The notes: a model not told the origin generated them from the sequence alone. 60,836 bases of DNA from a virus (IMGVR_UViG_3300020005_000005:1-60836); one strand, 5' to 3'; counted from the first letter of the stretch, positions 3,822 to 45,605 are shown. Translations and numbers: made by a program.

Positions 3822-3836
3822 AGGCACAATTTTTGT
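3822..3836 (+). promoter_or_regulatory. Sigma54-type -24/-12 motif
   Basis: AGGCACAATTTTTGT; GG at 3823 and G at 3835 have canonical spacing; ATG at 3849. Confidence 0.65.
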
Positions 3837-3848
3837 GGTATAAATCTT

Positions 3849-4505
3849 ATGATTAAACCAATACTAATTTGTGCCTTTTTTGTGCTTTTTGCACAGGGCA
3901 TGCCGGAAGCGGAGAATCAAACGAAGACCACCTACCTTAAAGAGGTGGAGATTGTTGGCTATCCGCTCGATGTGGAGATCTACCGGGTTCTTACTCAGGG
4001 TAAAGACTCTGTTTGGGCGCTTGATGGGTCTGACAGTCTCCTGATCGATGTACCGGCCCTAGATCCGGCCATGGCGCGACTCATCGTTGCACAAGCCCGA
4101 CACGAGACGGGTGACTTTGTCTCCCCATTATTTACTAATCACAACAATGTTTACGGAATGCAACATCCGGGACGCGGCAAACTAACCACCTCCCTAGGTC
4201 CACTTGCGACAGCAGAAGGAAGGCCCAACAAGTACGCATCCTATAGTACCGTTGAGGCATCGGTACTTGATTTAATGCTCTGGCTACAGTATCACAACAC
4301 ACCCAAGATTACCACGGCCGATGCGTATTGTAAGTATTTAAAACAACATCGTTACTTTGAAGCACCTTTAGTCGTTTACCAAAACAGTCTCAAACACTAT
4401 TTAGCATGTCCATCACCCAGTTTAAAAACCTTTATGACCAAAAACCCTTTTACACATCAATCGACAAAGTCCTTGAGACTATCAAAAACGGTGGCAAGCA
4501 ATTAG
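3849..4505 (+). CDS. GH73 glucosaminidase-family peptidoglycan hydrolase with signal peptide
   Basis: AQARHETG catalytic motif, NNVYGM, YASYSTVEASV; hydrophobic N-terminus ending AQG. Confidence 0.8.
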   Translation: MIKPILICAFFVLFAQGMPEAENQTKTTYLKEVEIVGYPLDVEIYRVLTQGKDSVWALDGSDSLLIDVPALDPAMARLIVAQARHETGDFVSPLFTNHNNVYGMQHPGRGKLTTSLGPLATAEGRPNKYASYSTVEASVLDLMLWLQYHNTPKITTADAYCKYLKQHRYFEAPLVVYQNSLKHYLACPSPSLKTFMTKNPFTHQSTKSLRLSKTVASN

Positions 4506-6118
4506 ACCTGATCAAACAAATCCGGGCGTCTAGGGACAAGGAGGAACGCAATGAGTTAAAGAAGCAACTTTCCGTTATTTGTTTTGGCGGTAAGTTTAGT
4601 GAACGCAAGGCCGCCGCTTTGGTGGAGTACTCCCGTCTGGTGGTGCTTGACTTTGATGACGCTTCTATAGTGACTAAAAGGCAAGAACTCTTGCTCCTTC
4701 CATACGTCTATGCTGTCTTTGTCTCGCCCTCCGGCGAGGGACTCAAGGCACTCATCCGGGTGAGTTCCGACAACCACTTAGGTCACTGGTCGGCCCTGCA
4801 CAAAGAGATTGATGGAGTTGATAAGAGTGGCAAGGACGTCTGTCGCGCCTGCTTCATGTCTTACGATCCCTCACTGTATGTCAATGCACACAGCGATATT
4901 TATACCAAAGTTGTCGAATCGGCTTATACTGACGAACAAAAACTAGAGAAGTTAAAAGTATGGTTAGCCAACAAGGGCGAACAGTTTAAGACGGGCAACC
5001 GCAATAATTTTTTAGCCAAGCTGGCGGGAGCCTGCAATCGCTTTGGTCTGACGGAGGCCTACGTCCTATCTGTTTTTGAAAGGGACTACGTAAAGGGATC
5101 TGACTTTAGCCTCAACGAGGCGCAGACCGTCGTTAGGTCTATCTACAAGAACTACTCGGAGTTCCACGCGACCGCCTCCTTCGACGAATCCTTTGGTGAG
5201 GCTAGGGCGGCTGAGATACTCTCCTCAGAGTTAACCACCAATGACGTCATTTATCTTAAAGACGTCGAGGCTGATCTGATCAACGATTATGAGCACGGCA
5301 CTCAAGGCGCACCCACCACCTATTTTCCTTCTATCGATCCTATCTTTAGGCCCCTACCCGGTGACCTTAATGTGTTGTCCGGCATAGGCAACCACGGTAA
5401 ATCGGCCATTAAAAAACAAATGGATCTTGTCCGCTCAGTCAAGGACGGTCACAAGCACTGTTACTTTAGCCCCGAGGAGGTCCCGCCTCTGTTCTGGTAC
5501 AGGGAACTCATTCGTTCTTATATAGGCAAACCACTGGAGCCTGGCTCGCGCGACAGGATGACAATGACCGAATATAAGCGGGGTATGGATTTTGTGAAGG
5601 AACACTTTGTTTTTGTCTACCCGCCCAGTCTACCTACACCCGATTACATACTAGAACGCTTTTCTGAGGTGATTATCAAGCACGGTATGAACTCGGTTAC
5701 ATTAGACCCATGGAACCAATTGCTTCACATCATGGACAAAAGGGACGATATCTACCTAGGAGAAGTCCTTTCCAAATTTGAGCGTTTCGCCCAGCAACAC
5801 GGAATCTATTTTACAGTGATATGCCACCCGAATAGGACGCGAAAAAAGAAGGACAAACAGGGGAATGAAGATGCTAATTATGATTGTCCGGACGTTTATG
5901 ACTTAAATGGCGGCCCTACCTGGAACGCGCGATCAACCAATATTTGTGTCTACCATCGCCCGTTTTGGGGTTCGGACAAAAACGACCCTACCGCCGAATT
6001 CCATTCAAAAAAAATTAAGAGACAAATGATTAGCGGCATTCCTGGCGCGTGTTCACTTGATTATAACCGCAAAACAGGTCGTTTTTATGATGGTGGTTAC
6101 TCTCCATTGGACAACTAA
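4406..6118 (+). CDS. Primase-helicase (BT4734/VirE-N-like primase, PriCT-like linker, SF4 helicase)
   Basis: VLDFD, FVSPSGEGLK, DKSGKDVCRACFMSYDP; GNRNNFL; Walker A SGIGNHGKS; LDPWN; ICHP. Confidence 0.85.
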   Translation: MSITQFKNLYDQKPFYTSIDKVLETIKNGGKQLDLIKQIRASRDKEERNELKKQLSVICFGGKFSERKAAALVEYSRLVVLDFDDASIVTKRQELLLLPYVYAVFVSPSGEGLKALIRVSSDNHLGHWSALHKEIDGVDKSGKDVCRACFMSYDPSLYVNAHSDIYTKVVESAYTDEQKLEKLKVWLANKGEQFKTGNRNNFLAKLAGACNRFGLTEAYVLSVFERDYVKGSDFSLNEAQTVVRSIYKNYSEFHATASFDESFGEARAAEILSSELTTNDVIYLKDVEADLINDYEHGTQGAPTTYFPSIDPIFRPLPGDLNVLSGIGNHGKSAIKKQMDLVRSVKDGHKHCYFSPEEVPPLFWYRELIRSYIGKPLEPGSRDRMTMTEYKRGMDFVKEHFVFVYPPSLPTPDYILERFSEVIIKHGMNSVTLDPWNQLLHIMDKRDDIYLGEVLSKFERFAQQHGIYFTVICHPNRTRKKKDKQGNEDANYDCPDVYDLNGGPTWNARSTNICVYHRPFWGSDKNDPTAEFHSKKIKRQMISGIPGACSLDYNRKTGRFYDGGYSPLDN

Positions 6119-6139
6119 ATTTAAAATCTTACGTTAATA
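6112..6139 (+). promoter_or_regulatory. ECF-sigma-type promoter motif, copy 3
   Basis: CAAC(6112-6115)-N16-CGTTAATA(6132-6139) at the head of a small-gene cluster. Confidence 0.6.
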
Positions 6140-6193
6140 AGTCTATAGTCCCTTAACCTGACCCCCTCTTGAACCCTATAAAATGGAGATACG

Positions 6194-6325: not shown

Positions 6326-6337
6326 CCCCCTCCCCCC

Positions 6338-7792: not shown

Positions 7793-8458
7793 ATGAAAAA
7801 TAAGCGCAAGGTTGCCGTCCTATCCAGCAGCCCGGTAAAGAGCGAGACAGAAAGTATAGGTATTAAAATTGACGTTAACAACTTATCAACACATGAATTA
7901 CTGGACAATCTTATGTGTTCTGCTTATTACCAAAAATCTTACTTCGGTGGATTTGAGGAATGGAGAGAAAGTGATATAATTCAACAGGATATTAAACGTA
8001 TAGAATCACGTCTTCAACCCAAGGCCGAACCTACCGTAGAAGGGGAGAAATGGATTCTTGATGAGGTCAATGCCTGCATCTTTAAGGGTGATGATGTTCT
8101 TCGATTTGAATCATTTGAACCATACTTTCCGCCAGATAAAAATAAATTAATTAAACTCCAATCCATCGCTGCCCTTCTCAATCGTGCCCCCTCGGGGGAA
8201 GAGACAAAGGAGGAAATTAGTCCAAGAGTTGCAAAACTGATTCTTGGTATTCGTGACGCTCTTGCGCTGGATAACGAAAAGGAAGCATATCACTTACTTT
8301 ATCAGATTACCTCGCCTAAATTCGATAAAACTACGGAACTATGGAAAGACGTTGAAGCTATTGCTCGCCGTTCCCCCGACAAGAACGTAGGAAAGGGGTG
8401 CCCCTGTAAAGAATCTCCTAATTGTGACTGCACTGTTGCTGGATTTCAATCTATATGA
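7793..8458 (+). CDS. Hypothetical protein
   Basis: 221-aa ORF with a Cys-rich C-terminal tip. Confidence 0.6.
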   Translation: MKNKRKVAVLSSSPVKSETESIGIKIDVNNLSTHELLDNLMCSAYYQKSYFGGFEEWRESDIIQQDIKRIESRLQPKAEPTVEGEKWILDEVNACIFKGDDVLRFESFEPYFPPDKNKLIKLQSIAALLNRAPSGEETKEEISPRVAKLILGIRDALALDNEKEAYHLLYQITSPKFDKTTELWKDVEAIARRSPDKNVGKGCPCKESPNCDCTVAGFQSI

Positions 8459-8808
8459 TCAAATATAAAACATCAACTGGAGAGGTGGTCTCTCAGGCAA
8501 CAATCAACAAAGAGCGGGCGGAGGCGTACATCAAGTACGATTTGGGTGTACGGGTTTGCGCGGGATGTGGCGGCCAGGCGCAGGGTCGGGCACACATTAT
8601 CGCTCAAGCGCGATGTAAGAGTATCCACAAAACAGACTATATCTGGCAACCATGGAACTGGTTCATTGCTTGTCATCGTTGTAATCAAAATTGGGAGGGA
8701 TTTAAGGGAGATGCGTGTAAGAAACTACTGAATTATGAAGAGTGTCTGCAGGTTCTGAAAGAGCATGATTATTATACTTTTCTGAAATATACTCATCTCC
8801 CGGCATGA
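8455..8808 (+). CDS. HNH-like zinc-binding nuclease
   Basis: CAGC...AHII...NWFIACHRCN. Confidence 0.65.
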   Translation: MIKYKTSTGEVVSQATINKERAEAYIKYDLGVRVCAGCGGQAQGRAHIIAQARCKSIHKTDYIWQPWNWFIACHRCNQNWEGFKGDACKKLLNYEECLQVLKEHDYYTFLKYTHLPA

Positions 8809-8816
8809 TTTTTGCT
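8801..8816 (+). promoter_or_regulatory. Sigma54-type -24/-12 motif
   Basis: CGGCATGATTTTTGCT with canonical GG-N10-GC; ATG at 8828. Confidence 0.7.
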
Positions 8817-8827: not shown

Positions 8828-9484
8828 ATGGCTCTTCCTGTTATCTATATAATAATTTCTCCAACTAACCGTATTTATGTCGGTCAGACTCGTGATTTTG
8901 AAAAACGAATAAGTTATTATAAAAGATCTAAATGTAAGGGACAAACACTATTGCACGCGTCTTTGAGAAAATACGGCTGGGAACAGCACACGTGTGAGGT
9001 AGTTGTCAAAACCAGGGCAGAAATTCCTCAATGGGAACTAACTCTTTTAGAGCAAACAATCATGGATCATTACCGCTCGGAGGGTTATGAATTGATGAAT
9101 CTAAAGGAGGCCGGTTCTTGGGGTAAACACTCGGAAGAAACAAAATTAAAAATGAGCGTTTCTCGCAAGGGTACCTGCCTCGGAACAGATCATCATAATT
9201 TTGGTAAACACCCGTCCAGAGAAACTCTTTTAAAAATGAGCCTCATAATGAGAGGTAAGCACAAAGGATCAAAAAGTCCGTCAGCCGTGCCTGTGTGGCA
9301 ATGTGAAAAAGACGGCACAAAAATAAAAAGATGGGAAGCGATGGCAGAGGCAGCAGAAGGCTTAAATATTAAATACACAAACATATCCAGATGTTGTAGG
9401 GGAACCAGACTTACTGCGTACGGATTTGTGTGGAAATATACAGAACCAAAATTACCCATAGTAGCGAAACACACTACTAGGTAA
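8828..9484 (+). mobile_element. Free-standing GIY-YIG homing endonuclease (NUMOD3 + NUMOD1-like)
   Basis: VIYIIISP...IYVGQT; GKHSEETKLKMS; ISRCCRG...TAYGFVWKY. Confidence 0.85.
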
Positions 9485-9490
9485 CCAGAT

Positions 9491-9505
9491 TGGCACGATT
9501 TTTGA
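9491..9505 (+). promoter_or_regulatory. Sigma54-type -24/-12 motif
   Basis: TGGCACGATTTTTGA, intergenic. Confidence 0.75.
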
Positions 9506-9534: not shown

Positions 9535-9669
9535 ATGGCAAAAACAAATTCAAAAAAGAAACCAAAAAAACTCTACAAAGGAGTAGCCTGTGTCGTTCCT
9601 GGAAAAATATATGGAGGCGGTGTAGGTGTGCCGGAAAAGAATATTGACCTAGAAGGTAACCTGATTTAA
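9535..9669 (+). CDS. Small basic protein (44 aa, absent from the ORF track)
   Basis: MAKTNSKKKPKKLYKG...DLEGNLI; downstream of a promoter motif and abutting the next ATG. Confidence 0.55.
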   Translation: MAKTNSKKKPKKLYKGVACVVPGKIYGGGVGVPEKNIDLEGNLI

Positions 9670-10015: not shown

Positions 10016-10024
10016 AGAGTTTTT

Positions 10025-10039
10025 TGGCACGGTTTTTGA
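10025..10039 (+). promoter_or_regulatory. Sigma54-type -24/-12 motif upstream of the tRNA
   Basis: TGGCACGGTTTTTGA; predicted +1 near 10051, adjacent to the tRNA 5' end. Confidence 0.75.
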
Positions 10040-10051
10040 TCATATAATAAC

Positions 10052-10129
10052 CGCGCGGTAAGGAAGTGGTCTATCCGCCCAGGCTCATAACCTCGGAATC
10101 GTTGGTTCGAATCCAACCCGACGCAACCA
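10052..10129 (+). tRNA. tRNA-Met(CAT), initiator-like, with structural irregularities
   Basis: Anticodon loop CTCATAA (CAT 10086-10088), T arm GTTGG-TTCGAAT-CCAAC, encoded CCA, C1:A72 mismatch. Confidence 0.85.
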
Positions 10130-10142
10130 GACATTTAAAAAA

Positions 10143-10672
10143 GGCACGGCAGAACAAGATCTCACAACTTAATCCTCGGATTGATCTCAACGCACTGCCG
10201 TGCTGGCTTCCCACGAGAAGCCAAGATTGATTTCGAGGATTATTTTTTGCCCTTTGGATAGGGAAGGATCTCTCCTGTACTGTTACCAGAAACAGCCTCT
10301 AAACCCTGGCACAACCCGATACAAGGGCGCCGTGTCGTCCGCGTACAACAAACCGTACGCCGACCACGTTAAAGAGTTTAATTGAGGAAATGGGCCTTCT
10401 ACTACTTGCTACCCGCCTCGGCCCATACGGTACACCTCACGATAAGATAAAGGGTACTCAAGATAGCAATCCTCTATAGGGGGTAGGGGGTTGCTACTTG
10501 CTTATCCACGGCGCCCGTAGCCCCTCGCTTCGCTTCGTGGCGACGTGTAGAGCACCGCGGGGACGTGATCAGCCCCCGTTTCCTTCTCTAAGAGATAGAG
10601 CCACACGGTGACAAGCAAACAGGTATTCCCCTCAAAAAATAGGGGAAGGGGAAATGAAGGGGGCACGTCCCG
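10143..10672 (+). ncRNA. Candidate large structured non-coding RNA
   Basis: No credible ORF; more than ten complementary segments including 8-10 bp perfect long-range helices and a pseudoknot (see findings). Confidence 0.55.
10346..10374 (+). promoter_or_regulatory. ECF-sigma-type motif, copy 4 (inside the structured region)
   Basis: CAAC(10346-10349)-N17-CGTTAAAG. Confidence 0.35.
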
Positions 10673-11205: not shown

Positions 11206-11388
11206 GTGGAAAGAGGATCTGTTATTGACAACCAGGAGCAAAAAATCGATGGAAGGATCAAGGTGTGGGTAACAGTCAAGAAAAAGGACGGGACAAAAGA
11301 GCGCCTTTTTTATTATTGGGACGAGGCCAGTAAGCAGCAGAAATACTACGATAACCTGTATAAAAATCACCCCCCGTGCCCACTATGA
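11206..11388 (+). CDS. Hypothetical protein
   Basis: 60-aa ORF abutting both neighbours. Confidence 0.5.
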   Translation: MERGSVIDNQEQKIDGRIKVWVTVKKKDGTKERLFYYWDEASKQQKYYDNLYKNHPPCPL

Positions 11389-12215
11389 AATATTATGTCT
11401 ATCGTCATATTCGCCCAGACAAGAACGAGCCCCTTTACATAGGCTTGGCTAAGAAAGCGAAGAAGTTTAATACTATTAAAAACGAATACGCACGAGCCTA
11501 CGCTCACAGCAAAGATCATAGAACTGAATTTTGGCATAACATATTTAACCTGTGTAATAAGAAAATTGAAGTTGACATTCTTTATGAATCCGATGATTGG
11601 AAAGAAATCAATGAAAAGGAAATAGAGTTTATAAAACTCTACGGGCGTGCTGATTTGGGTCTGGGCCCCCTAGTAAATTTCACCAACGGCGGCGAGGGTA
11701 ATCATGGAACAATAGTCACGGAGGAAACAAGACGCAAAAGAAGCGAGTCCATGAAGGGTAAAAATACCGGCCCAATAACGGAGGAGCATAGACAAAACTT
11801 AATCAAGTCCCATCTAGGATATAGCCCCACGGAGGAACATCGTAAGAATTTAAGTATAGCGGGTAAAAAACGCTATGAAGATCCAGTAGCGCGTCTTGTA
11901 ATGAGTCAACGAATGATTGGTCGCGTGTTTACCGAAGAATGGAAACAAAACGGTAGTAAGGCTAGGCTAAAATTTATGGCGGAAAATCCTGGCCATTGGG
12001 AAAGCATAAGATTAATCAATGATAGGGCTGTTGTTAAATTAACACTGGCTGGTGAATTTGTTCAAGAATATAAATCACTACGTGAAGCCGCCAAAGAAAA
12101 CGGAATGAAAAGCAGTTCTGGAATTGGTGCGGTTGTAAGAAAAGTAGGCAATAACAAAACGGCGTACGGATTTAGGTGGGCATTTAAAGAGAACTTTGTT
12201 CTATGCCCCAATTGA
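11385..12215 (+). mobile_element. Free-standing GIY-YIG homing endonuclease (second subfamily; NUMOD3 repeats + NUMOD1-like)
   Basis: YYVYRHIRPDKNEPLYIG; LVNFTNGGEG; TEETRRKRSESMKG and TEEHR repeats; TAYGFRW. Confidence 0.85.
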
Positions 12216-12871
12216 AACCACTGGTAGACGCCGACCTGCTTGTATATAGATGTTGCGCTGGCAACAGGGGTCATAACGATTTCATTCAAATGGTGGAGGC
12301 GGCCGATGATTTTATCCAATATATAGAGGGAATGTTTGAGGAGAAAGCCCTACTGTTCCTGACAGGGAAGAACAACTTTAGATATGCGGTAGCAACGCTA
12401 GTACCTTATAAAAACAATCGTAAAGATAAACCGCGCCCCCGTCACTTCCAATCAATGAGAGAGTACTTAGTGAACTTTCACAATGCTCGAATAGTGGACG
12501 GAATAGAGGCAGATGACGCTCTTGCGACGCTCCACAAGGAGGACACAGTACTTGTAACTTATGACAAAGATTTACGACAGTGCAAAGGGTGGTATTTTAA
12601 CACGCTTAAAAACGAACTTATTTATATCTCCCAGATCGAGGCAGACTACAACCTGTACTATCAAATGCTTGTGGGAGATTCCGCGGATGCCGTGCCAGGT
12701 ATAAGAGGAATAGGCGAAAAAAAGGCACCGCCGATTTTAATAGATAAGAATAAGCAAGAAATGGAGGAGGCCGTGATGAAAGAATACAAAAGACAGTACG
12801 GCGACAATGCTAAGAAATATTTTGATGAGGTTTATACACTACTTTACTTAAAAAGAGATTGCCAATTATGA
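12203..12871 (+). CDS. 5'-3' exonuclease (T7 gp6/flap endonuclease-like)
   Basis: VDADLLVY, NFRY, YKNNR, IEADDA, DKDLRQ, LVGDSADAVPGIRGIGEKKA. Confidence 0.9.
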   Translation: MPQLKPLVDADLLVYRCCAGNRGHNDFIQMVEAADDFIQYIEGMFEEKALLFLTGKNNFRYAVATLVPYKNNRKDKPRPRHFQSMREYLVNFHNARIVDGIEADDALATLHKEDTVLVTYDKDLRQCKGWYFNTLKNELIYISQIEADYNLYYQMLVGDSADAVPGIRGIGEKKAPPILIDKNKQEMEEAVMKEYKRQYGDNAKKYFDEVYTLLYLKRDCQL

Positions 12872-13083
12872 ACATAAACGATTTTATTGACAAATGGTGC
12901 TTAGGCCAGTATAGAGAACTGGCAACGCAGGACTTGCTCACGGTGTCTGACACCGAGTACAAGCAGGTGGGACTGGGCGAGATTTTTGAGATTGATGGGA
13001 AGAAGTACCTAATAAGGACGCCGGAAACTGCGACAGAAGACATAAACATACACGGTCAAGTAATTTACCCAGTATTCACATGA
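12868..13083 (+). CDS. Hypothetical protein
   Basis: ATGA-type overlaps with both neighbours. Confidence 0.55.
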   Translation: MNINDFIDKWCLGQYRELATQDLLTVSDTEYKQVGLGEIFEIDGKKYLIRTPETATEDINIHGQVIYPVFT

Positions 13084-13805
13084 AAATTTTACTTAACTAT
13101 AAAAGTTCAGATCTCATTTTCTTCGATATTGAAACAGCGAGGGTTGTGGAAAAATTAATACCAGGGACTCCATTGCACTCAGCGTGGCAGTACAAAGCGA
13201 GGTACCAGAATGAGATGAAGGAAAAACTATCACGCGACGGATCAGACCCCGAAGTGGCGCTGGAGGAATTCTTTGAAGAAAAAAGCCCACTCTACGCGCC
13301 ATTCGCTCGAATTGCTTGTATAGTGGTGGGTAGAATAGACGGAGAGAATCTCAAGGTTAAGACTTACGCTGGAGAGGAGGATCAACTTCTCACCAACTTC
13401 ATGACGGACCTGTCTATGTTTACCACCGCCAGGCCAGGCGCGGCCCTGTGTGGTTTCAATAATATAGGCTTTGATCAGCCAATGATTACCAAGAGATCGA
13501 TGGTCAATAATGTGCAACTCCATCCATTGCTTGACACGGCACACCTAAAACCGTGGGAAATTAATGCACTGGATCTCAGCACATTGTGGAAAGGCGCTTC
13601 CTTTTATCCCGATTCCCTCGTAGCCGTGGCCACAGCACTCGGCTTACCATCGCCCAAAACGGGCATGGACGGCGCCAAGGTTTCTGAAGCCTTTTACGCA
13701 GGTAAAATAGATGAAATTGTGGAGTACTGTAAGGCCGATGTCTTAACAACAGCCAATATTTATAGGCGCTTTTCTCAAAAAAGTTTATTAAAAATGACAG
13801 AATAG
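13080..13805 (+). CDS. DEDD 3'-5' exonuclease (PolB-exonuclease-related)
   Basis: FFDIET (ExoI), GFNNIGFDQP (ExoII), EYCKADVLTT (ExoIII). Confidence 0.85.
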   Translation: MKILLNYKSSDLIFFDIETARVVEKLIPGTPLHSAWQYKARYQNEMKEKLSRDGSDPEVALEEFFEEKSPLYAPFARIACIVVGRIDGENLKVKTYAGEEDQLLTNFMTDLSMFTTARPGAALCGFNNIGFDQPMITKRSMVNNVQLHPLLDTAHLKPWEINALDLSTLWKGASFYPDSLVAVATALGLPSPKTGMDGAKVSEAFYAGKIDEIVEYCKADVLTTANIYRRFSQKSLLKMTE

Positions 13806-14809: not shown

Positions 14810-15248
14810 CCCAAGTTTTATGTTGATCGAAGAAATTGTTGAAATTTTGAGTGACGCCGGTAAGGTAGGCGTATATGCTGCCGAGGTCATGGAGGATAGC
14901 AAAAACAAAGATGAGACATATGCGCTGGCATGGTTCCTGTATAATTCGCGCCAATTTAAGGACAGTTTGGTTCAGGTTGCTTTTGTACTGGGCGGCAAAG
15001 ATGGCCGCCCAGTATCGGAGTTTTATACAGCCGCACCGGCCCTGACTGATCAGTACTTCACCCTGCACGATCTGCAAGAAAGACACTCGACCCTCCGCGA
15101 CAAGGTTCTGCGCATGCGCTTGGCCTATGAGGACTTCATTAACGAGAACGTGGCCGTCAGGATCCTCTTCAAAGTGGTGGACTCTCAGATGCAACTCATG
15201 ACGTGGGCACTTGGACAAGCCGTAAATGCAATACCCGATGCTAAATAA
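14796..15248 (+). CDS. Hypothetical protein
   Basis: 150-aa helical ORF. Confidence 0.6.
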   Translation: MESGNPSFMLIEEIVEILSDAGKVGVYAAEVMEDSKNKDETYALAWFLYNSRQFKDSLVQVAFVLGGKDGRPVSEFYTAAPALTDQYFTLHDLQERHSTLRDKVLRMRLAYEDFINENVAVRILFKVVDSQMQLMTWALGQAVNAIPDAK

Positions 15249-15612
15249 GCCTAAGTTCCTCAAAATCGTCATTTTGGCACTATTTTTGCTACTTGTAGTA
15301 GGAGGAATCAGTGGATGGATATACCACAGCCGGACTCAAAAACAATTACAGAATGAAAATCAATACCAACAATTACGGTCTCGCCAGCGCGAACTGGAAT
15401 ATGACAAAAGGCTCCAAGCCTCTGAGTTGGAGAGAAAAAGCGTACAGCGTCATTTGGATTCTCTTGCTTTTGCTTTTGATCATCTTGATAGGATACATGC
15501 AGCAGACTCTGCCGAGTTGGTCAAAATAAAAGGTAGGTTTAGTAAGTTAACTGGCACTGAACTCAGCAAGAAAATGATTGAGGAGTACAACAAAAGTTTA
15601 CAGCATGACTAA
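15238..15612 (+). CDS. Membrane-anchored coiled-coil protein (i-spanin-like)
   Basis: N-terminal transmembrane segment followed by a coiled coil. Confidence 0.5.
   Translation: MLNKPKFLKIVILALFLLLVVGGISGWIYHSRTQKQLQNENQYQQLRSRQRELEYDKRLQASELERKSVQRHLDSLAFAFDHLDRIHAADSAELVKIKGRFSKLTGTELSKKMIEEYNKSLQHD
15275..15290 (+). promoter_or_regulatory. Intragenic sigma54-type motif
   Basis: TGGCACTATTTTTGCT, canonical GG-N10-GC, but inside a CDS. Confidence 0.4.
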
Positions 15613-22021: not shown

Positions 22022-22039
22022 GTTCCAAGTGGAACATTC

Positions 22040-22054
22040 TGGCACGATTTTTGT
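22040..22054 (+). promoter_or_regulatory. Sigma54-type -24/-12 motif
   Basis: TGGCACGATTTTTGT, intergenic. Confidence 0.75.
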
Positions 22055-23684: not shown

Positions 23685-24162
23685 TAGTTCTCGTTGTGGA
23701 CCTACCGTCATCAAAAGTATTCTGGCCTACTACGACATAGAGGCTTCGGAGGATGAGATTTGCCGATTATGCGGTCACACTTTTGAATATGGTTGCGATG
23801 ACGCTGGCATGAAGGCTGCTCTGGAGCATTACGGACTCCGCGTGGCTATCTACAACAACTCCAACTTCCAGCAAATAGCCTACTGGATCAAGAGAGAAAT
23901 ACCGGTGATTGTCGATTGGTTCACCGGCGGAGTTCAGCCAGGTCCGGCCGATCTACCTAACGGGCACTCAAGCATTGTGGTAGGACTCGACGAGGACAAG
24001 ATACATTTGCTAGATCCTGAAGATGGGAATATCAGACATGTTGTGCGAGAAGATTTTCTCCGTTGTTGGTTTGATTTTAAAGGTCTTGACGCGCCTTGCA
24101 TAGATTCTTGGGATCAGTTGATATTACGTCAAATCATTGTTCCGTACAAGGTTAATTTTTAA
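23653..24162 (+). CDS. C39-family cysteine peptidase
   Basis: QSDSSRCGP (Gln/Cys), GHSSIVVG (His), LLDP (Asp). Confidence 0.85.
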   Translation: MIKVPAFIQSDSSRCGPTVIKSILAYYDIEASEDEICRLCGHTFEYGCDDAGMKAALEHYGLRVAIYNNSNFQQIAYWIKREIPVIVDWFTGGVQPGPADLPNGHSSIVVGLDEDKIHLLDPEDGNIRHVVREDFLRCWFDFKGLDAPCIDSWDQLILRQIIVPYKVNF

Positions 24163-24166
24163 AAAT

Positions 24167-24781: not shown

Positions 24782-26675
24782 GGAAGAAGATCGTCCTGGA
24801 ATAATTCCTTTAAATGAGTATAAAGAAGATCTCGAACTTGAGGTACAGTACCACGTCGCTCGAATAATGGCAGGGAATCCATTTAAAGTAAACAAGAAAT
24901 ATAAACGTATCGAAATACCCGACTTCAAACCAAATGAAACACGAGAGCGCTTGGACTGGGAAATGTCTCAAGTGGACAAGTGTATTCATGGTTTTGATGG
25001 ACTCCCCGGCAGATACTACTTCTTTCTAAACTTCTGCAAAATAAAACACAAGAAGCGTGGTAAAATTTCTCCCGATTTCAGAGCATGGCAATTAAATTTT
25101 GCCAATGTGAAAGAAAAGATTTCAAAAACACCCGGCAGAGGATTGGTATCTATTAAACGTCGTCAGGTTGGTGCTTCTTGGGATTTCTCAGCAGATAATA
25201 TTTATGACTGCACTTTCAATAAGCATTTTGATATAGGGATGAATTCAAAGGGGGAAGTAGACTCCAGATCCTTATTTATCAAACATAAATATATTCATCG
25301 CAATCTGCCGCCGTTTCTGCGGGCAAGCATTTCCATAGATCGCCGCGACGCGATGATCTTTGGTAAATGGGATAAAAAAATACAAAAGTGGAAAGGCAAT
25401 GAGTCATCTATTATTTCGGTAGCACCTACGCTTACATCTCACGCTGGAAATCAATATCGAAAATTAGTAATAGACGAGGCTGGTGAAATTGATAATTTAA
25501 TGGGTATTTGGTCAAATTGCGAGGATTGTATTATCCAAGACTCTGAGCGCGTGGGCATACCATACATATTTGGGACCATGGGCGACACAGCTAAAAACGG
25601 AAAAGGTCTGATGGAGTTTTATCTAAAGAACGAACTTTACGGGCTTGATCGCTTTCCTATTTTTGGATATAATGGTTTGCTTGTAGACGATTTAGGCAAT
25701 GATATGATCGAGGATGCGGTGCGCTACATTCTATATGAGAGAAGGAGGAAGGAGGGTGGTTCTGATATCGTCTACAGAAAATACTTACAAAAATTTCCAC
25801 TCACCGAACAGGACGCGTTCATAACCATTAGTGGTTCCGGGGTTGGTAATCCTCAACTAATACAGAAGCGCTATACGCAGTTAATGGAAAATCCAGTCCA
25901 GCAAGTCAAGGGATGGATGAGACCTAAAGTTGGAGGGGGATCTGATTTTGTTCCAGATCCATTAGGTAAGATTATTGTGTATGAAAGACCATTGCAAGTA
26001 ACTAATGGCTACGTGGCATCAACAGATCCGGCTGAGGATGATGATGTTCTTAAAAATCGCGATACCTCCAATTTATCAACAGCAATAGTTGCGCGTCCTT
26101 TAGGGTTACAACCGCCGCGGTTAGTACTTGAATATACAGATAGACCAAATAAACTTGCGGATTATTATCAGCAAGTAGCCCTTGCTTTAGAGTGGTACAA
26201 TCATACGCAAGTACTAATCGAAATGAATAAAGGCGGCTGGAGAATGAATGATTGGTTTGAGTTGTACTTCCCTAAATTAATATGTTGGTCGCCAAAGTCA
26301 GGTAATTCTGTTCGCGGCGGCTTTGCAATGACGAAGGGTATTAAGATGAGTCCCGATAGAAAGATGCAAATGATGGGGTTGCTTGATTCTAATGTAGAAA
26401 ACTACTGGGAATCATTGCCGTCACTTAGGTTACTAGACGAATTTAAAGTATTTGGGGCCGATCACGCGGATGATGATCTCGCGGCTGCGTATGGGTGGTG
26501 TCTTGTTCAATTACAAAGTGATAAACGTGTAGCGCAGGCACTCAATGCAGATGAAGCCAACAAACCAAAAGCCTTTTATAAAAAGGAAGGGCTCACCATA
26601 AAATTATATTCTGATATTAACAAGCCGGTAGGTCCGGTGATACGTCGTACTAGAAATCCACTTTTCAACAGATAA
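24774..26675 (+). CDS. terL: Terminase large subunit
   Basis: Walker A-like KRRQVGAS, Walker B LVIDEAG, nuclease motif ASTDP, IEMN; lies before the portal. Confidence 0.9.
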   Translation: MSKEEDRPGIIPLNEYKEDLELEVQYHVARIMAGNPFKVNKKYKRIEIPDFKPNETRERLDWEMSQVDKCIHGFDGLPGRYYFFLNFCKIKHKKRGKISPDFRAWQLNFANVKEKISKTPGRGLVSIKRRQVGASWDFSADNIYDCTFNKHFDIGMNSKGEVDSRSLFIKHKYIHRNLPPFLRASISIDRRDAMIFGKWDKKIQKWKGNESSIISVAPTLTSHAGNQYRKLVIDEAGEIDNLMGIWSNCEDCIIQDSERVGIPYIFGTMGDTAKNGKGLMEFYLKNELYGLDRFPIFGYNGLLVDDLGNDMIEDAVRYILYERRRKEGGSDIVYRKYLQKFPLTEQDAFITISGSGVGNPQLIQKRYTQLMENPVQQVKGWMRPKVGGGSDFVPDPLGKIIVYERPLQVTNGYVASTDPAEDDDVLKNRDTSNLSTAIVARPLGLQPPRLVLEYTDRPNKLADYYQQVALALEWYNHTQVLIEMNKGGWRMNDWFELYFPKLICWSPKSGNSVRGGFAMTKGIKMSPDRKMQMMGLLDSNVENYWESLPSLRLLDEFKVFGADHADDDLAAAYGWCLVQLQSDKRVAQALNADEANKPKAFYKKEGLTIKLYSDINKPVGPVIRRTRNPLFNR

Positions 26676-26678: not shown

Positions 26679-28838
26679 ATGTTTCCAAGGTTAGACTCGT
26701 CAAAAAAAGATAAAGATTATCATGTTGCCTGGGGTAGGGCAATTTTAACTTCATCAATCACAGACGACTGGTCTATGAAGTACCGAGTCATGGCTGAGTG
26801 TTACAAGTTTTTTCAGTCAGGCTCTAGCGGCGAACTAACTTCCTTCTTACAAAAAGCAGCCGACGGAAGCGACATGCCGGCGATGTGGCTCACGATGAGT
26901 TCACTCAAGTCTAAAATCGAAGTGCTCGTTGGAGAACTCGAAGAACGCGGGTATGATATTCGCGTCAGAGCGCTAAACAAAGAAGCCACCTCGCGTAAAC
27001 TTGATGAGAAGGAAAGACTTCGTGTAGAAAGGCGCCTTCAAAACATAGCTAGGTTTGCTACGGCAGAGACCGGATTACCAGTTCAAAAGGATACAGACAT
27101 TCCGCAAAGTGATGCGGAATTAGATGAGAAGATGGACAGCTACAAAGATAAAGCCGAGATCATTGTAGAGACCGCGCTGAAGTACTGCAATAAAAGAGAA
27201 GACTTCGACGACACGCGGGTCAAGTGGTTTAAGGACGTGTGGATCGCTGGCAAAATCTTTGCACGCAACCAGATTGTGAGAGGAATGCCCGAATCACCTC
27301 GAGTTGATCCATTAGCTTTTATCTACGACAGACACTGCGTCAAGGACGACCTTAGTGATAGTACTTTTTTTGGTGAAGTCTATTACATGCCGTTAGGACA
27401 GGCCGCGGAACGTTTCAATTTAACCAAGGACGAATTAGAAACTGCCAACAACGCCTACAATCAATTTGTAGGTATGACCTCGCAGTTGATGAACACACCA
27501 CAGACGAGTAATCAATTTTTTGATAGTATTCCTAACGCCACACTTGGTTGGTTTAAAAACGTAGATAATATACCTCGCGTGCTCGTGTGCAGAACTGTCT
27601 GGTCAGATTTTAAGATCAGAAAGTATAAAAACGAAGTTAATACTAAATATGGCACCGAACACCTTCAGGAGATAACGGACGAAGTTAGAAATCGCGGCAA
27701 GAGTCCTCTTATCACGAGCAAGATGAATGTGTGGCGTCAGGTCACTTTGATCGGCGGTACTATTGTCAGGGAATGGGGAGAGTGTCCCAACCAGGCAAGA
27801 GAACTGTCAAGCCTTGAGATGACCGAACCTCCTTACAAATGTTGGGTTCCTAATTACTTCTTGAGTTCTTCGGTCAGTAAGACCGAGCAAGTCGTCGGCA
27901 TAGAATTGCTCCGAGACATTGCTGCTTACAATCTCCAGTTAGCCATGAACCGGTCAGCGGGCAAAGTGGTAGCTTATGATATAGCAATGAAGCCCGAAAA
28001 CATGACCTTTGAGCAGGTAATGGGGTATGCTAAGACGGGTGGATTTATCCCGGTGAACTCCAAGGAGTATCAAATGATGAGCGGGGGCATGAAGATCATG
28101 GATTCCTACGATCTGACTATGTCGGGTGATATTAACAAGTTCTTGGAAATCATGGCCTTTCTAGATTCCCAGGTGGATACAATTCTTGGCACCTCGCCCG
28201 AACGTCAAGGTAATATACCTGTTGCTTCTCAAGCTGTGGGTGTCACACAGGCTGCCGTGGCTGGATCTAATCTCGTCACCGCACCGTACTTCAAGGGCTT
28301 TGAAAGATTTTGTAGCAGAGTGCTCAATCAGAAGGCAAAGTTTATTAAAATTGCTTGGGCCAACAGTGATAAGGAATTATTTGCACCAATTATAGGTGAT
28401 GCCGGAATAGACTTTTTAAAAGACAACATAGATATAGATCTGGATGAATTCAATGTTTGGGTAGAATCCTTGCCGCCACTGTTGCGCGACCGCGATAAGT
28501 TGGAGAATCTGGTTACCCTAGCCGTGCAAAGCGGTACTATGGAAATTCAAGATGCGCTCGCTATCCTTATGGAGCCGGACCTCAAGATTGCCGTTCGCAA
28601 GCTAATGCGCAAAGCTGCACTTCGTAAGATGATGGAAGCGCAGCAGGCGCAGGCTGAACAGCAACAAGAAGCAGCCTTGCAGGAAAAAATGAAGGCAGCA
28701 GACATGCAGAATCAGCAAATGTTGATGCAGAATCAGCAACAATTGCAGGCTCAAAAGAACCAGGGCAATATGCAAAAAACACTGGCCACTGGGCAGGTCA
28801 AACTCTCTACTGAGAAAATAAAAGCACTGACTCAGTAA
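26679..28838 (+). CDS. Portal protein
   Basis: 719 aa directly after terL; ILGTSPERQG and AVGVTQAA motifs; Gln-rich C-terminal helix. Confidence 0.85.
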   Translation: MFPRLDSSKKDKDYHVAWGRAILTSSITDDWSMKYRVMAECYKFFQSGSSGELTSFLQKAADGSDMPAMWLTMSSLKSKIEVLVGELEERGYDIRVRALNKEATSRKLDEKERLRVERRLQNIARFATAETGLPVQKDTDIPQSDAELDEKMDSYKDKAEIIVETALKYCNKREDFDDTRVKWFKDVWIAGKIFARNQIVRGMPESPRVDPLAFIYDRHCVKDDLSDSTFFGEVYYMPLGQAAERFNLTKDELETANNAYNQFVGMTSQLMNTPQTSNQFFDSIPNATLGWFKNVDNIPRVLVCRTVWSDFKIRKYKNEVNTKYGTEHLQEITDEVRNRGKSPLITSKMNVWRQVTLIGGTIVREWGECPNQARELSSLEMTEPPYKCWVPNYFLSSSVSKTEQVVGIELLRDIAAYNLQLAMNRSAGKVVAYDIAMKPENMTFEQVMGYAKTGGFIPVNSKEYQMMSGGMKIMDSYDLTMSGDINKFLEIMAFLDSQVDTILGTSPERQGNIPVASQAVGVTQAAVAGSNLVTAPYFKGFERFCSRVLNQKAKFIKIAWANSDKELFAPIIGDAGIDFLKDNIDIDLDEFNVWVESLPPLLRDRDKLENLVTLAVQSGTMEIQDALAILMEPDLKIAVRKLMRKAALRKMMEAQQAQAEQQQEAALQEKMKAADMQNQQMLMQNQQQLQAQKNQGNMQKTLATGQVKLSTEKIKALTQ

Positions 28839-28841
28839 GTT

Positions 28842-28882
28842 TGGCACGGTTTTTGTTACTATAAGCATGGCACGCTATTTGT
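28842..28882 (+). promoter_or_regulatory. Tandem sigma54-type motifs ahead of the capsid operon
   Basis: TGGCACGGTTTTTGT (28842-28856) and TGGCACGCTATTTGT (28868-28882). Confidence 0.75.
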
Positions 28883-31604: not shown

Positions 31605-31634
31605 ATGGGCCGGGCAAACGCCCGGCCCATTTTT
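31605..31634 (+). terminator. Intrinsic terminator after MCP
   Basis: 11-bp perfect stem ATGGGCCGGGC/GCCCGGCCCAT followed by a T tract. Confidence 0.9.
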
Positions 31635-31654
31635 AAACTTTTAAATTTACAACA

Positions 31655-32507: not shown

Positions 32508-32544
32508 AAGAGCCTGCGCGGGATTCCTCGCGGAGGCTCTTTTT
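32508..32544 (+). terminator. Intrinsic terminator
   Basis: AAGAGCCT.CGCG / CGCG.AGGCTCTT followed by a T tract. Confidence 0.8.
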
Positions 32545-32548
32545 GTTT

Positions 32549-33137: not shown

Positions 33138-33836
33138 ATGGCATTAGACGTGAGTTTGTCGTTCGAGTCAATTACTGCCGATAGGCTGACTGGAACTTTA
33201 CTGGATAATACAGTGTATGGCACCGGAGGTAATCCCGCACGAGCCGCCGTTGGCGTATGGATGACTGGGACAAAAAGAAAATTTGATGACACCGTTGATT
33301 CGACTTTAACGGTCAGCGGAAATTCAAATAGTCCAAGTACGGATGTTTCATGGACCTTCAACATACCTAAAGACGGATGGTTCCGCTTCTTGTTTGTAAT
33401 CATTCCTGATTACGCCGGAGGCACAACTTATGCGTTATATGATGCCGTTCGAAATTCTTCAACCAACGTAGTCTATCGTTCTAAACAAGCGGGCAATGTA
33501 GGGCACGCGTTGACAGATACCGCCTGGTGGGAAGTTATAGCCGATCCTTCTTCTCTAGCTTCTAATGAGGGAGAGCCCAATGAGTCAGCCAATATTGCAT
33601 CCGACGTGTATGAGATAGTACCAACTCCTTCGGGGGAGTTAGCGTTTGCCAGTGCTATAGCTATTGCTTCAACCGAGGGTGGAGATGCCGATAGAGAGCA
33701 AAGTGTTCAACTTTATGAATTACTTGCTGTTCTTATAGATGGCGCATACATTCGTTCAGATAGATCGTCTTTTAGTCAGGCTGAAAGAATATGTAGAAGA
33801 ATAGAAACTATTTATACAGAAAATGGATTGATATGA
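33138..33836 (+). CDS. Virion structural protein
   Basis: 232 aa, beta-rich, at the head of the fibre cluster. Confidence 0.55.
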   Translation: MALDVSLSFESITADRLTGTLLDNTVYGTGGNPARAAVGVWMTGTKRKFDDTVDSTLTVSGNSNSPSTDVSWTFNIPKDGWFRFLFVIIPDYAGGTTYALYDAVRNSSTNVVYRSKQAGNVGHALTDTAWWEVIADPSSLASNEGEPNESANIASDVYEIVPTPSGELAFASAIAIASTEGGDADREQSVQLYELLAVLIDGAYIRSDRSSFSQAERICRRIETIYTENGLI

Positions 33837-34660
33837 GTATAGGAATTTATACTATTATTTCTCCAACCAGCAAGGTCTACGTAGGACAAAGTTGGGATAT
33901 ATCAAGACGCTGGAGGTCTTATAATAGACTGAGTTGCTCTGATCAACCTGCTATTTATAATTCTCTCAAGAAGCATGGTCCAGAGGCACATGATTTTGAA
34001 ACTATTTTAGACTTCACACAAGACGTCACCCAAGCAGAACTAGACTGGTGGGAACAAATTATGATGGATTATCATCGTGAAAAGGGAGACGAATTACTTT
34101 TTATAAGAGACGCCGGCTCTAATGGTAAACAAGCAGAAGAAACTAAAAGGAAACTAAGTGAATCTAAAAAAGATAAAAAAAGAAAACCATTTACGGCAGA
34201 ACATCAACAAAAATTAAAAGATCGCTGGACATACCAACCTCATCCCTGGGAAGGTAGAAATCATTCGGGCGAATCTCGACAAAAAATGAGTAATTCTCAT
34301 AAAGGAAAAAATACAGGAAATAAAAATCCTATGTTTGGTAAAACTCATTCCGAACTAGCAAAATTAAAAATTAGCAAAGCGTGGAAAGGCAAAAAACATC
34401 GTCCTGAGTCTATTTTAAAAATACAAAAAGCTACTGCGGGCGAAAATAATCCGATGTATAGTAAGTTCGGAATAGAGCACGGTGCCTCCAAGACAGTTGT
34501 TCAATTAACCAAAGAAGGAAAATTTGTTAAAAACTGGGATTGTATATCGGATGCCGGTAGATTTTTGCAGATGAAAAGTACATCTAACATAAGTGGGTGT
34601 TGCAGAGGCAAGCGTAAAACCGCGGCAGGATTTAAATGGAAATACAATGTCAGTAAGTAG
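33833..34660 (+). mobile_element. Free-standing GIY-YIG homing endonuclease with multiple NUMOD3 motifs
   Basis: GIYTIISP..KVYVGQS; HSGESRQKMS, NPMFGKTHS; CCRGKRKTAAGFKWKY. Confidence 0.88.
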
Positions 34661-43971: not shown

Positions 43972-43980
43972 ACATAAAAT

Positions 43981-45588
43981 ATGTTTCCTTATACATACGG
44001 CAAAGCAAGAATAGGCGGAGATTCAGCAGTCCTCGGTGTTAATTTTTTAACCAATTCTAATCTCGGTTTAATAAATGGTTCTGGTGGAGTGGCCGGCCTT
44101 GCCCCAAAGTTAGATAACACTTATCAGAGTTTTGCTGGAGGTGTTTTAAGAAAGACTGATAAAGGATTGATCGTTGAAGACACCCGCCAAAACTTCATAG
44201 CCGCTTCTTCGGATTTTATAAACGCGGCATGGGCCGCTGGTTCATTTACAGGAATTGTATCTAAACTTAGTGTTATACCGTCAGTAACTGGCGCGTCCGA
44301 GTTTGAATCCAACACTAATCAAGGATTAATTAATCAAAATAACAGAGGAACATTCTCAGCGGGGGTAGAAACGCTTTGGTGCTTGGTGGAGGCCACGCCA
44401 TCGGCCACAGATTTTGGGATGGCGATGGGTGACTCTACATCCGGGAACGTCGAGGTTATTGGGATGTATTTCAACTTTGTCACCAAAGTGATCACACAAA
44501 GAGGAAACGCCAATACTCGCATCTTTGGATATATAGATTTTGGTCCTGCAAGTGGCCCTAATGGTGGAAATTTATTTTTACTTATCACTTCGGGAACACC
44601 CGCCGCCGGCACAGTAGGTCACACGCGCAGAATGTTTTTATATCCTAACGGGTCAACAGCCGGAACCGCAGGCAGAAAGACTACTTTACATCATCTTCAA
44701 TATGAACCTGGCGCTTTTGCAACTTCGCCCATTGTAAATGCAAGTACAACTAGCAATACACGCGCGGCAGAGTCAATAACAGTATCAGTAGCTACAGGAA
44801 CCTACGATGTAAGGTTTACTACGCAGGACGGAACAATAAACGATAAATATGCGGTAGCCAGTTCCTCTAATTTATTGACCATTCCGTTAGACATAACACA
44901 GAACGTATCAATTCAAATAGGTGACGTATTTTTACAGCGCTTACAGAGGAATGGATCAATATCCAATATATCCATTTGGAACCAAAAAGTTAATAATATT
45001 CATGGTCTCGGCGATAGTTACTTGGTTCTCGGGGCATCTGGCGGACAGAATGTAATCCAGTGGTTACCACCAAAATTGTACAGGCCTAGAGTATGGACTT
45101 TTGATGGAGTTGGTGCCACCTCTCTTACTCAGCAGGCGGTTAGGTTTGATGCTACGCCATCATTTTACGGGGACCTTCTTGTAATAGTAGATGGTGTTAT
45201 TGACGGACTAACTACTAATAACGACTTCGCACTCATAGTCCAACCGGCAATCGAAAGCATGCTTGCTCATTTAACTACCTCTCCAAAGCAATGGATTTAT
45301 GTACAACCAAACCCAGATGTAAATGCTGGCACTGTAGGAAGCGTTTATTATACTAGATGGCTCCTGATTCAGTCCCAAATAAAGGCGGCGTATCCAAATA
45401 ATTATGTTGAAACTTTACCTCAAATGCAAGCATTCAATAATGGATCAGCCAATGATCTTGCAGATATAGCCGCCGGCGAATGGCCCAGATCTTTGAGAAT
45501 AGACGCCGCTAATGTTCATCCTAATGAGTTAGGGTCGATGTATCTGGCTCAAATAATAGACAACGCGATTCAGGCCCGTGGCTACTGA
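43981..45588 (+). CDS. Virion fibre/spike with C-terminal SGNH hydrolase domain
   Basis: GLIVEDTRQN and QYEPGAFATSPI...TRAAE fibre motifs; GLGDSY and VHPNELG SGNH motifs. Confidence 0.75.
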   Translation: MFPYTYGKARIGGDSAVLGVNFLTNSNLGLINGSGGVAGLAPKLDNTYQSFAGGVLRKTDKGLIVEDTRQNFIAASSDFINAAWAAGSFTGIVSKLSVIPSVTGASEFESNTNQGLINQNNRGTFSAGVETLWCLVEATPSATDFGMAMGDSTSGNVEVIGMYFNFVTKVITQRGNANTRIFGYIDFGPASGPNGGNLFLLITSGTPAAGTVGHTRRMFLYPNGSTAGTAGRKTTLHHLQYEPGAFATSPIVNASTTSNTRAAESITVSVATGTYDVRFTTQDGTINDKYAVASSSNLLTIPLDITQNVSIQIGDVFLQRLQRNGSISNISIWNQKVNNIHGLGDSYLVLGASGGQNVIQWLPPKLYRPRVWTFDGVGATSLTQQAVRFDATPSFYGDLLVIVDGVIDGLTTNNDFALIVQPAIESMLAHLTTSPKQWIYVQPNPDVNAGTVGSVYYTRWLLIQSQIKAAYPNNYVETLPQMQAFNNGSANDLADIAAGEWPRSLRIDAANVHPNELGSMYLAQIIDNAIQARGY

Positions 45589-45590
45589 TT

Positions 45591-45605
45591 TGGCACGATT
45601 TTTGT
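45591..45605 (+). promoter_or_regulatory. Sigma54-type -24/-12 motif
   Basis: TGGCACGATTTTTGT, intergenic. Confidence 0.75.

Follow-up and report, generated by a model that had tools for sequence, protein, structure and literature searches.

The IMG/VR viral record IMGVR_UViG_3300020005_000005, taken here in full (60,836 bp, classed as linear) and called the window, carries a short DNA box, TTGGCACGRTTTTTG, that recurs ahead of its genes and always lies on the coding strand. We propose that this box is a sigma54-type promoter read by the host RNA polymerase, which would drive both the replication and the late genes; judged from the DNA sequence, we hold this reading with about even confidence. 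The box, as TTGGCAYGRTTTTTG, would be the main promoter of the rightward genes, that is, those for replication, the tRNA, packaging, capsid and tail. Phages are known to be transcribed through the host primary sigma factor, sigma70-family factors of their own, sigma appropriation or phage RNA polymerases. The initial annotation of this DNA knew of no well-described phage running on sigma54, and none was found in a full-text search of openly available articles without their supplements. What came closest was a Pectobacterium phage protein with a weak HHpred likeness to sigma54 (PMC7693777).

A conserved, strand-specific box ahead of the rightward genes

All nine motif sites listed by the initial annotation are present in the window, and the distance from the first G of GG to the G of TTG is exactly the 12 nt of sigma54 promoters at each of them. 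The sites were real but their positions were those of the base before GG (a T in seven of the nine), and the GG doublets start one base later, at 3823, 8802, 9492, 10026, 15276, 22041, 28843, 28869 and 45592. The full box is longer than the motif described there. The pattern GGCAYNNNNNTTG (GGCAY-N5-TTG) matches 13 times on both strands (12 on the plus and one on the minus), compared with 4.07 +/- 2.00 expected from 100 dinucleotide-preserving shuffles, among which the largest count was 10 and none reached 13. The 15-mer TTGGCACGATTTTTG, allowing up to three mismatches, gives 12 matches that include all nine sites, against 2.68 +/- 1.55 in shuffles, none of which (0/100) reached 12. The 11- and 12-mers that are repeated most in the window include words of the box, and the four remaining GGCAY-N5-TTG matches (42764, 51541 and 54017 on the plus strand; 38179 on the minus strand) are intragenic and devoid of the wider consensus. 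Additionally, a canonical TGGTAT-N5-TTGC form is found inside the first gene (583-601, TTTGGTATCCTTTTTGCGT), also without the wider consensus, and may be due to chance.

The placement at gene boundaries (8/9) and on the coding strand (9/9) is as first described: seven sites fall in intergenic gaps, the one at 8802 overlaps the stop of the upstream open reading frame (ORF), and the one at 15276 is intragenic. The downstream genes are likewise as stated or close to it, being lysin-like, endonuclease and tRNA genes and the capsid and tail/muzzle blocks. All copies are on the plus strand. The first one (TAGGCACAATTTTTG, 3821-3835) heads a block with the primase/helicase gene, and the ATG of a lysin-like ORF (3849) stands 14 nt past its last G; this ORF is weakly endolysin-like and has a hydrophobic N-terminus. 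Since its ATG lies only 14 nt beyond the last G, its mRNA is probably leaderless. The second one (CCGGCATGATTTTTG, then C; 8800-8814) sets the ATG of a GIY-YIG endonuclease (8828) also 14 nt past its last G, and the GIY motif of this protein begins at about residue 5 (residues 5-7), which makes the start codon very likely real. In this sense, both start codons are credible, that at 3849 because of the hydrophobic N-terminus and that at 8828 because of the early GIY motif. One homing endonuclease thereby appears with a box of its own and a leaderless start. The exact consensus TTGGCACGATTTTTG is found at 9490-9504, ahead of a 44-codon basic ORF (9535-9668) and of a gene at 9671, and again at 45590-45604, where it heads the block of the muzzle homologue and a giant ORF (the tail/muzzle block starts at 45647). 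Copy TTGGCACGGTTTTTG occupies 10024-10038 and is followed by TATAAT at 10043-10048 and by a tRNA gene that starts 15 nt past the last G (10053-10125, plus strand; Rfam RF00005, 37.9 bits; missed by ARAGORN). The intragenic copy (TTGGCACTATTTTTG, then C; 15274-15288), inside ORF 15226-15612, is probably an internal promoter for downstream genes. Copy CTGGCACGATTTTTG, then TGCTATAAT (22039-22053), heads the glycosyltransferase/terminase/portal block; TTGGCACGGTTTTTG occurs once more at 28841-28855, 3 nt past the portal stop, and a second, weaker copy (ATGGCACGCTATTTG, 28867-28881) is placed 26 nt on, ahead of the capsid block (ATG 28920).

The name of late promoter given by the initial annotation does not hold, because the box is also found ahead of the tRNA, of a homing endonuclease and of the blocks with the primase/helicase and the exonucleases; we infer that it is a general promoter of the whole rightward gene set and not a late-only one. 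The base after TTG at the eight boundary sites is, in order, T, C, A, A, T, T, T and T, and it is C at 15276, so C follows TTG at 2/9 sites and seven of the eight boundary copies lack C at -12, as had been observed before. A TATAAT-like hexamer is present 3-5 nt past TTG in six or seven of the nine sites.

The box is kept beyond the window. The portal protein has 153 homologues at E <= 1e-10, the 120 listed being 46-66% identical; many of them are encoded on 71-77 kb contigs, and a 75,092-bp contig encodes an identical portal. Scanning IMG/VR with the single portal sequence gave nothing; with the portal alignment A1, 17 loci were retrieved from IMG/VR and 16 from metagenomes. Among the relatives, G127, G128 and G129 are whole records and collinear with the window, and the box is conserved in relatives whose portal proteins are 36-66% identical. 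In 30 sequences, some of them near-duplicates, GG[CT]A[CT]-N5-TTG has 99 matches on the coding strand and 31 on the opposite one; the whole record of G129 has nine box matches and none on the opposite strand. Directly past the portal stop, an unbiased search for the best match recovered GGYA-N6-TTG (GGCA or GGTA) within 50 nt in 10 of 20 relatives, with varying intervening letters, and in several relatives the box is also found directly ahead of the portal gene.

A family profile was built from 51 unique non-coding sites of the window and 29 relatives' sequences. The pattern itself fixed GG, A and TTG. Counted from the last G, the remaining positions show T at -14 (36/51) and -13 (35/51), directly before GG, G at -7 (35/51), a purine at -6 (47/51) and T at -5 (45/51), and the third position is C rather than T in 43/51 sites. 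The profile reads YTGGCACG-N4-TTG, and all the information falls in a single block between -15 and 0; no second conserved block was found, the stretches from -37 to -15 and from +1 to +40 never exceeding 0.33 bits. The TATAAT-like hexamers of the window fade to a weak AT-richness at the family level. Sigma70-type hexamer pairs were not enriched (28 vs 30.8 +/- 5.0 expected), and the TATAAT-like hexamers occur only 11-13 bp past GGCAC, not at the 16-18 bp spacing of the sigma70 family.

The primary-sigma promoter of Bacteroidota has a -33 TTG and a -7 TAnnTTTG element, with the TTG about 19-21 bp upstream, in agreement with our reading of phages phi14:2 and Fpv1. When the 51 sites are read in this way, the would-be TA was G 35, A 11, T 4, C 1 at its first base and A 26, G 21, C 3, T 1 at its second, and nothing was conserved upstream of -15. 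A search for a second promoter class by 6-mer enrichment, covering 128 intergenic stretches from G127-G129 and the window, returned only words of the AACTAA/TAACTA/AATTTA type (AACTAA, TAACTA, ACTAAA and AATTTA, 2.7-3.8x enriched). AACTAA-type words often stand 10-25 nt before ATG, or directly upstream of the box in G128, and may be a translation or UP-like signal.

The distances from the box to gene starts restrict where transcription could begin. An ATG is found at G+14 (14 nt past the last G) for window 3849, window 8828 and a small ORF of G128 (26405), and at G+15 start the portal gene of L286 and the tRNA of the window. Four short distances were set aside as doubtful calls, namely TTG starts at 15 (G128 622) and 12 (L297 14386) and distances of 3 (G129 8778) and -2 (L298 3348); the remaining listed distances are all at least 25 nt. 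The starts at G+14/15 imply that transcription must begin no later than about G+14, and from the sequence we place its start at about 13-14 nt past the last G. They also exclude GGCAC as a -35 element, since transcription would then start past these ATGs and the tRNA end, and they fit poorly with a start 7 nt past the TATAAT-like hexamers.

Viral records without any detectable protein in common with the window have the same box, too. One of them, G001 (110 kb, 29% G+C), reached by an exact-word scan of IMG/VR, has 11 sites against none for a reversed-pattern control, and nine of them are an identical 14-mer followed by CA; tblastn gave a single weak protein match between it and the window, and its promoter cassette, when compared with cultured phages by BLAST, had only weak matches attributable to chance. 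Site counts for the richer and the poorer strand, each followed in brackets by those of the reversed pattern as control, were 34/3 (control 2/1) in G135, a 208-kb record, 16/2 (2/0) in G132, 10/7 (0/0) in G133, 5/0 (0/0) in G136 and 5/3 (2/0) in G134. In the G135 cluster, TTG follows at the fixed spacing in 30 of 35 TGGCAY words and the information resides in TTTGGCAYGATTtTTG; G135 itself has the box 30 times, mostly 34-40 nt ahead of small ORFs. Of 121 exact matches to the 15-mer in bacterial genomes, 54 have C as the next base, which suggests that bacterial copies often lie within true TTGC promoters. Other IMG/VR loci have array-like boxes (L021, L022, L042, L034 and L098): L022 contains a tight tandem array of four copies 17-34 nt apart, and L021 and L042 contain inverted pairs that share TTGC halves. 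From their arrangement, these loci look more like operator/iteron arrays or convergent promoters than like single promoters.

Candidate readers of the box

Bacterial sigma54 (RpoN) promoters have the consensus YTGGCACG-N4-TTGCW. The phage box resembles them in TGGCAC(G) and TTG at the canonical spacing, in a single block of about 15 bp, in AT-rich DNA downstream and in compatible starts; GG at -24/-25 is present within TGGCAC, and the free neighbouring positions agree with it. It differs from them in that it rarely has C at -12, shows no upstream activator site and no enhancer-binding ATPase, and would serve as a general promoter of a lytic phage. The proposal of sigma54 as the reader thus stands as regards a conserved, strand-specific box that matches -24/-12 promoters in sequence and spacing, and is weakened by the rarity of C at -12 and by an ECF-like competitor (see below). 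Furthermore, the presence of one box in unrelated phages makes a host factor of near-universal specificity, such as sigma54, the simplest reader.

Published work on sigma54 bears on this reading. A consensus of TGGCAC-N5-7-TTGCT has been given (PMC12316311). In Flavobacterium psychrophilum, mapped starts assign groES/EL, dnaK, grpE, lon, htpG and clpB to sigma54 (PMC9723704), and the same enrichment is described elsewhere (PMC12316311). In our own phylum sample of Bacteroidota, groES upstream regions contain TGG-N9-TGC/TTG boxes in 18 of 35 genomes (e.g. TTTGGTACGGTAGTTGCAT). These chaperone promoters (groES, dnaK, grpE, lon, clpB; motif SM4 of F. psychrophilum, PMC9723704) probably belong to the same phylum as the phage host, and the groES ones, as read in those 18/35 genomes, have a -24 element of the same form (TTTGGTACG / TTTGGCAC). 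In contrast to the phage boxes, they keep TTGC/TGC, lie 85-95 nt before the ATG and have a conserved element further upstream, whereas the phage boxes mostly read TTGT or TTGA and are found 14-70 nt before the start. Both TTGAAT and TTGCAT were recovered as functional -12 elements from an in-vitro sigma54 library of Pseudomonas putida, in which the activator worked from solution and had no binding sites (PMC11997794). The sigma54 holoenzyme needs an ATPase activator to open DNA, recognition of -24 dominates closed-complex formation, and the -12 region acts as a regulatory lock whose loosening accompanies activator bypass provided that the DNA melts (PMC5095919, PMC7057263).

Several observations weigh against sigma54. 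The base after TTG is T in 26, A in 16, C in 8 and G in one of the 51 family sites, and a C at -12 is what sigma54 promoters typically have; TTG is kept, and the GC doublet at -12/-13 (TTGC) is therefore wanting in most sites (C in 8/51), while the Bacteroidota groES promoters that were read do keep GC. T follows TTG in 15/30 boxes of the G135 cluster as well. The G127/L301/L303 lineage does carry TTGCT. Searches with Sigma54_activat, Sigma54_DBD and Sigma54_CBD found no match in the window, those with Sigma54_activat and Sigma54_DBD none in G127-G131 or G001, and no shared upstream activator site was seen in the aligned flanks. Sigma70_r2 matches occur in three of the six other box-bearing records (G135, 1.5e-16; G133, 5e-6; G001, 0.013), the copies of G001 can also be read, in our own reading, as a sigma70-type TTGGCA-N16-TATTAT, and the three whole relatives encode a candidate sigma factor of their own, which is treated below. 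The initial annotation saw no activator gene; we confirm that no such ATPase or rpoN domain is detected in the window or in the records of five relatives, but this cannot be read as absence because the window is 44% complete and a relative runs 22 kb further. Two loose GAFTGA-like matches (G[AS]F[TS]G) were both in tail proteins and were taken as chance. In G135, an 888-aa ORF (C1) has two AAA+ stretches matching Sigma54_activat (2.4e-11), which could be Clp-like rather than an enhancer-binding protein, and a 238-aa ORF has a strong Sigma70_r2 match (1.5e-16); the coordinates recorded for these side observations are C1:143679-145106 and 8444-8644.

Since the sigma54 holoenzyme needs an ATPase, a phage relying on sigma54 must solve the opening of its promoters, and the loss of C at -12 hints how. 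In the mechanism that we propose, the most likely reader would be the host RNA polymerase with sigma54, which would bind GG and TTG, one helical turn apart in one compact block followed by easily melted AT-rich DNA. The scarcity of C at -12 and the AT-rich downstream DNA may result in a weakened -12 lock, and opening might get by with little activator or with one that acts from solution, or might depend on some phage protein. A weakened lock next to AT-rich DNA is a coherent mechanism and a candidate only.

A phage sigma or helix-turn-helix (HTH) factor is a serious rival to sigma54. The box may be the promoter of a phage-encoded sigma70-family factor (ECF-like, about 160-200 residues), an explanation that we consider possible in a tentative way: an early transcript would supply the factor, which would direct the host core polymerase to each box, the sigma54 likeness being coincidental, and its gene would presumably be in the part of the genome that is missing from the window. 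A gene of this kind (ECF-like sigma / LuxR-type HTH) is present in all three whole relatives examined, at L318:15112-15603:+ in G127, L328:8510-9034:+ in G128 and L323:17884-18483:- in G129; it is encoded opposite to the main genes in G127 and G128 and inside the rightward replication block in G129. The 163-aa ORF of G127 matches Pfam Sigma70_ECF (E 7.6e-5, 23.1 bits against a cut-off of 21.1), with weaker matches to region 2 and region 4. However, it is the only one of the three copies to pass the Pfam cut-off, the C-terminal half of the protein seems to resemble a LuxR/NarL-type HTH as much as sigma region 4, and the gene is not seen in the window, which lacks that region.

Past the end of the window, G127 continues for 22 kb with the complete giant ORF, a leftward block and then a rightward block headed by a box. 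The leftward block, of about 15 kb, holds the ECF-like gene and has no convincing box, while the rightward blocks start with one. A sigma gene on the opposite strand, in a block without a convincing box, is a classical layout for a phage sigma that activates later genes, and an early sigma redirecting the host core enzyme to the boxes would be the textbook way for such a phage. A 644-aa ORF in the same leftward block was guessed to be a DNA polymerase and has no family match. Additionally, the family shows no RNA polymerase of its own, since the giant ORF lacks a DxDxD motif in both the window and G127, and neither the rare C at -12 nor the missing enhancer-binding ATPase needs a special explanation if a phage sigma reads the box. 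The Sigma70_r2 matches in G135, G133 and G001 also point in this direction, but a profile of the ECF-like protein, which recovers its own three sources, found nothing in the six other box-bearing records, and unrelated sigmas would have to have converged on one 15-mer equal to the sigma54 consensus. Furthermore, GG and TTG are just 10 bp apart, without the second block at 16-18 bp that regions 2 and 4 normally need, and using GGCAC as the -35 would put transcription starts past the ATGs and the tRNA end at G+14/15. A precedent for single-block promoters of a phage sigma is offered by phages 7-11 and phiEco32 (PMC4331800). In the available part of that article, their promoters resemble the box as a single short block before middle/late genes, accompanied by a small sigma gene (here found in the relatives), and differ from it in a TGATGT core with TATA and in that no likeness to sigma54 is reported there.

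It is unlikely, in our opinion, that the box is an activator site, for a phage or host protein, upstream of a -10-like element read by the host primary sigma. T4 middle promoters, with a MotA box and a -10, would be the analogue, as would a class II activator site. The window does show TATAAT-like hexamers 3-5 nt past TTG in six or seven of the nine sites, with GGCAC 11-13 bp upstream, the relatives encode a small protein with a LuxR/GerE-type HTH, and the inverted pairs and tandem arrays of L021, L022 and L042 are operator-like. Nevertheless, the hexamer dissolves family-wide to AT-richness (<=0.33 bits), a start 7 nt past it falls beyond the ATGs at G+14, and the sigma70-type scan gave no enrichment. 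The cultured Bacteroidota crAss-like phages phi14:2 and Fpv1 use TTG ... TAnnTTTG promoters, not TATAAT, so the likely host sigma would not read such hexamers. The middle promoters of phi14:2 (bioRxiv 10.1101/2020.03.07.982082) are comparable with the box in being conserved, in preceding middle/late genes and tRNAs and in their use of the host polymerase, which would apply to the box too, but they are, as read in the sequence, of the primary-sigma type (TTG ... TAnnTTTG); no -24/-12-like box was found in the 50 kb of phi14:2 scanned or in the first 50 kb of Fpv1.

Very improbable is a non-promoter role as an RNA processing site, a replication/packaging signal or a repressor operator, for which strand specificity and gene-boundary position (also expected of an RNA signal) and the arrays and inverted pairs of other viral loci could speak, but the box lies directly ahead of the tRNA and of ORFs that start 14 nt off, the gaps contain no other promoter-like motif, almost all rightward blocks of the window, and those of G127, are headed by it, G135 repeats it 30 times mostly 34-40 nt before small ORFs, and its sequence is that of a known promoter class.

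Returning to sigma54, a broader proposal is put forward with considerable reserve: a class of uncultivated phages, including the crAss-like soil family, the jumbo phage with 34 copies and others, might transcribe mostly through the host sigma54 holoenzyme, using a promoter variant in which TTGGCAYGRTTTTTG is followed by T or A instead of C and the -12 lock is weakened, and firing without a DNA-bound enhancer protein or with a phage-made opener.

Genome, kinship and likely host of the phage

CheckV estimates the completeness of the window record at 44%, so it is a fragment, and its long ORFs are all on the plus strand. We had considered a circular contig, as an ORF continues for 24 codons into position 1, and dropped it, the record being a fragment and G127 extending 22 kb further. 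The non-coding end of the record (1-501) contains long G and C runs (GGGGGGGAGGGGAACCCCC) and no box, and could represent an end of the genome, an origin or a boundary to the missing leftward block. It is followed by a nicotinamide adenine dinucleotide (NAD) salvage set (502-3261) that encodes a PRPP-synthetase-like protein (ribose-phosphate pyrophosphokinase-like), a phosphatase and a nicotinamide phosphoribosyltransferase (PHROG matches of 4.4e-53, 1.9e-42 and 4.6e-191, respectively); this block has no box ahead. NAD salvage sets may counter host defences that deplete NAD.

The plus strand also encodes the primase/helicase (4406-6118), exonucleases (12203-13805), the large terminase (24774-26675) and the portal (26679-28838), and the window includes a metallophosphoesterase and glycosyltransferases. 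Three GIY-YIG homing endonucleases are encoded at 8828-9484, 11376-12215 and 33833-34660, and the ORFs 24137-24781 and 48752-49471 cross-match the endonuclease region of G127 in tblastn. These genes and ORFs point to a heavy invasion of the genome by homing elements. The crAss muzzle protein has a homologue at 49462-53526 (PF25731, 2.2e-39). The giant ORF, which comes after the muzzle and cargo genes (56889-60836 in the window), is complete in G127, where it occupies 44691-49409 of the reoriented record and encodes 1572 aa; the two share 37% identity across about 1300 residues. Pfam and PHROG gave no match to this ORF, and a DxDxD motif was found neither in the window copy nor in the complete 1572-aa copy of G127; its identification as a crAss-type virion RNA polymerase, an enzyme marked by a DFDxD motif, was dropped for this reason.

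Two hairpins can be read by eye as intrinsic terminators for bacterial RNA polymerase: a GC-rich one with a T run on the plus strand at 31607-31636 (GGGCCGGGC-AAAC-GCCCGGCCC-ATTTTT), and a similar one, also with a T run, at about 32510-32545. The scan tool listed neither of them. About 0.5 kb past the tRNA (10126-10653) has no convincing ORF and contains G/C-rich runs (e.g. GGGGGTAGGGGGTTGC). Rfam gave no match in this stretch, which could encode a non-coding RNA transcribed from the box at 10024. Long intergenic regions of phi14:2 are reported to be highly transcribed (Drobysheva et al., bioRxiv 10.1101/2020.03.07.982082).

A megablast of 8 kb found no close cultured relatives, and a portal tblastn against cultured phages returned distant crAss-like and Flavobacterium phages only; the portal shares 21-24% identity with crAss portals across 77-88% of its length. 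Shine-Dalgarno sequences were not found ahead of the window genes, which were read directly. Given the genes without Shine-Dalgarno sequences and the crAss-like portal and muzzle kinship, a host from Bacteroidota is probable. The stretch is contained in four DNA runs of soil metagenomes (two studies), and the sequencing-run search listed no RNA runs containing it. This soil phage family, apparently distant kin of the crAss phages, is new.

Implications for uncultivated phages

Compact and very well conserved, the box occurs widely in viral contigs and could be used as a marker for operon prediction in uncultivated phages. If an ECF-like factor reads it, it would represent the promoter type of a novel family of phage sigmas, one mimicking a sigma54 site. 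If, on the other hand, the sigma54 reading is true in Bacteroidota, expression of these phages would be tied to the sigma54-driven chaperone response of their hosts.

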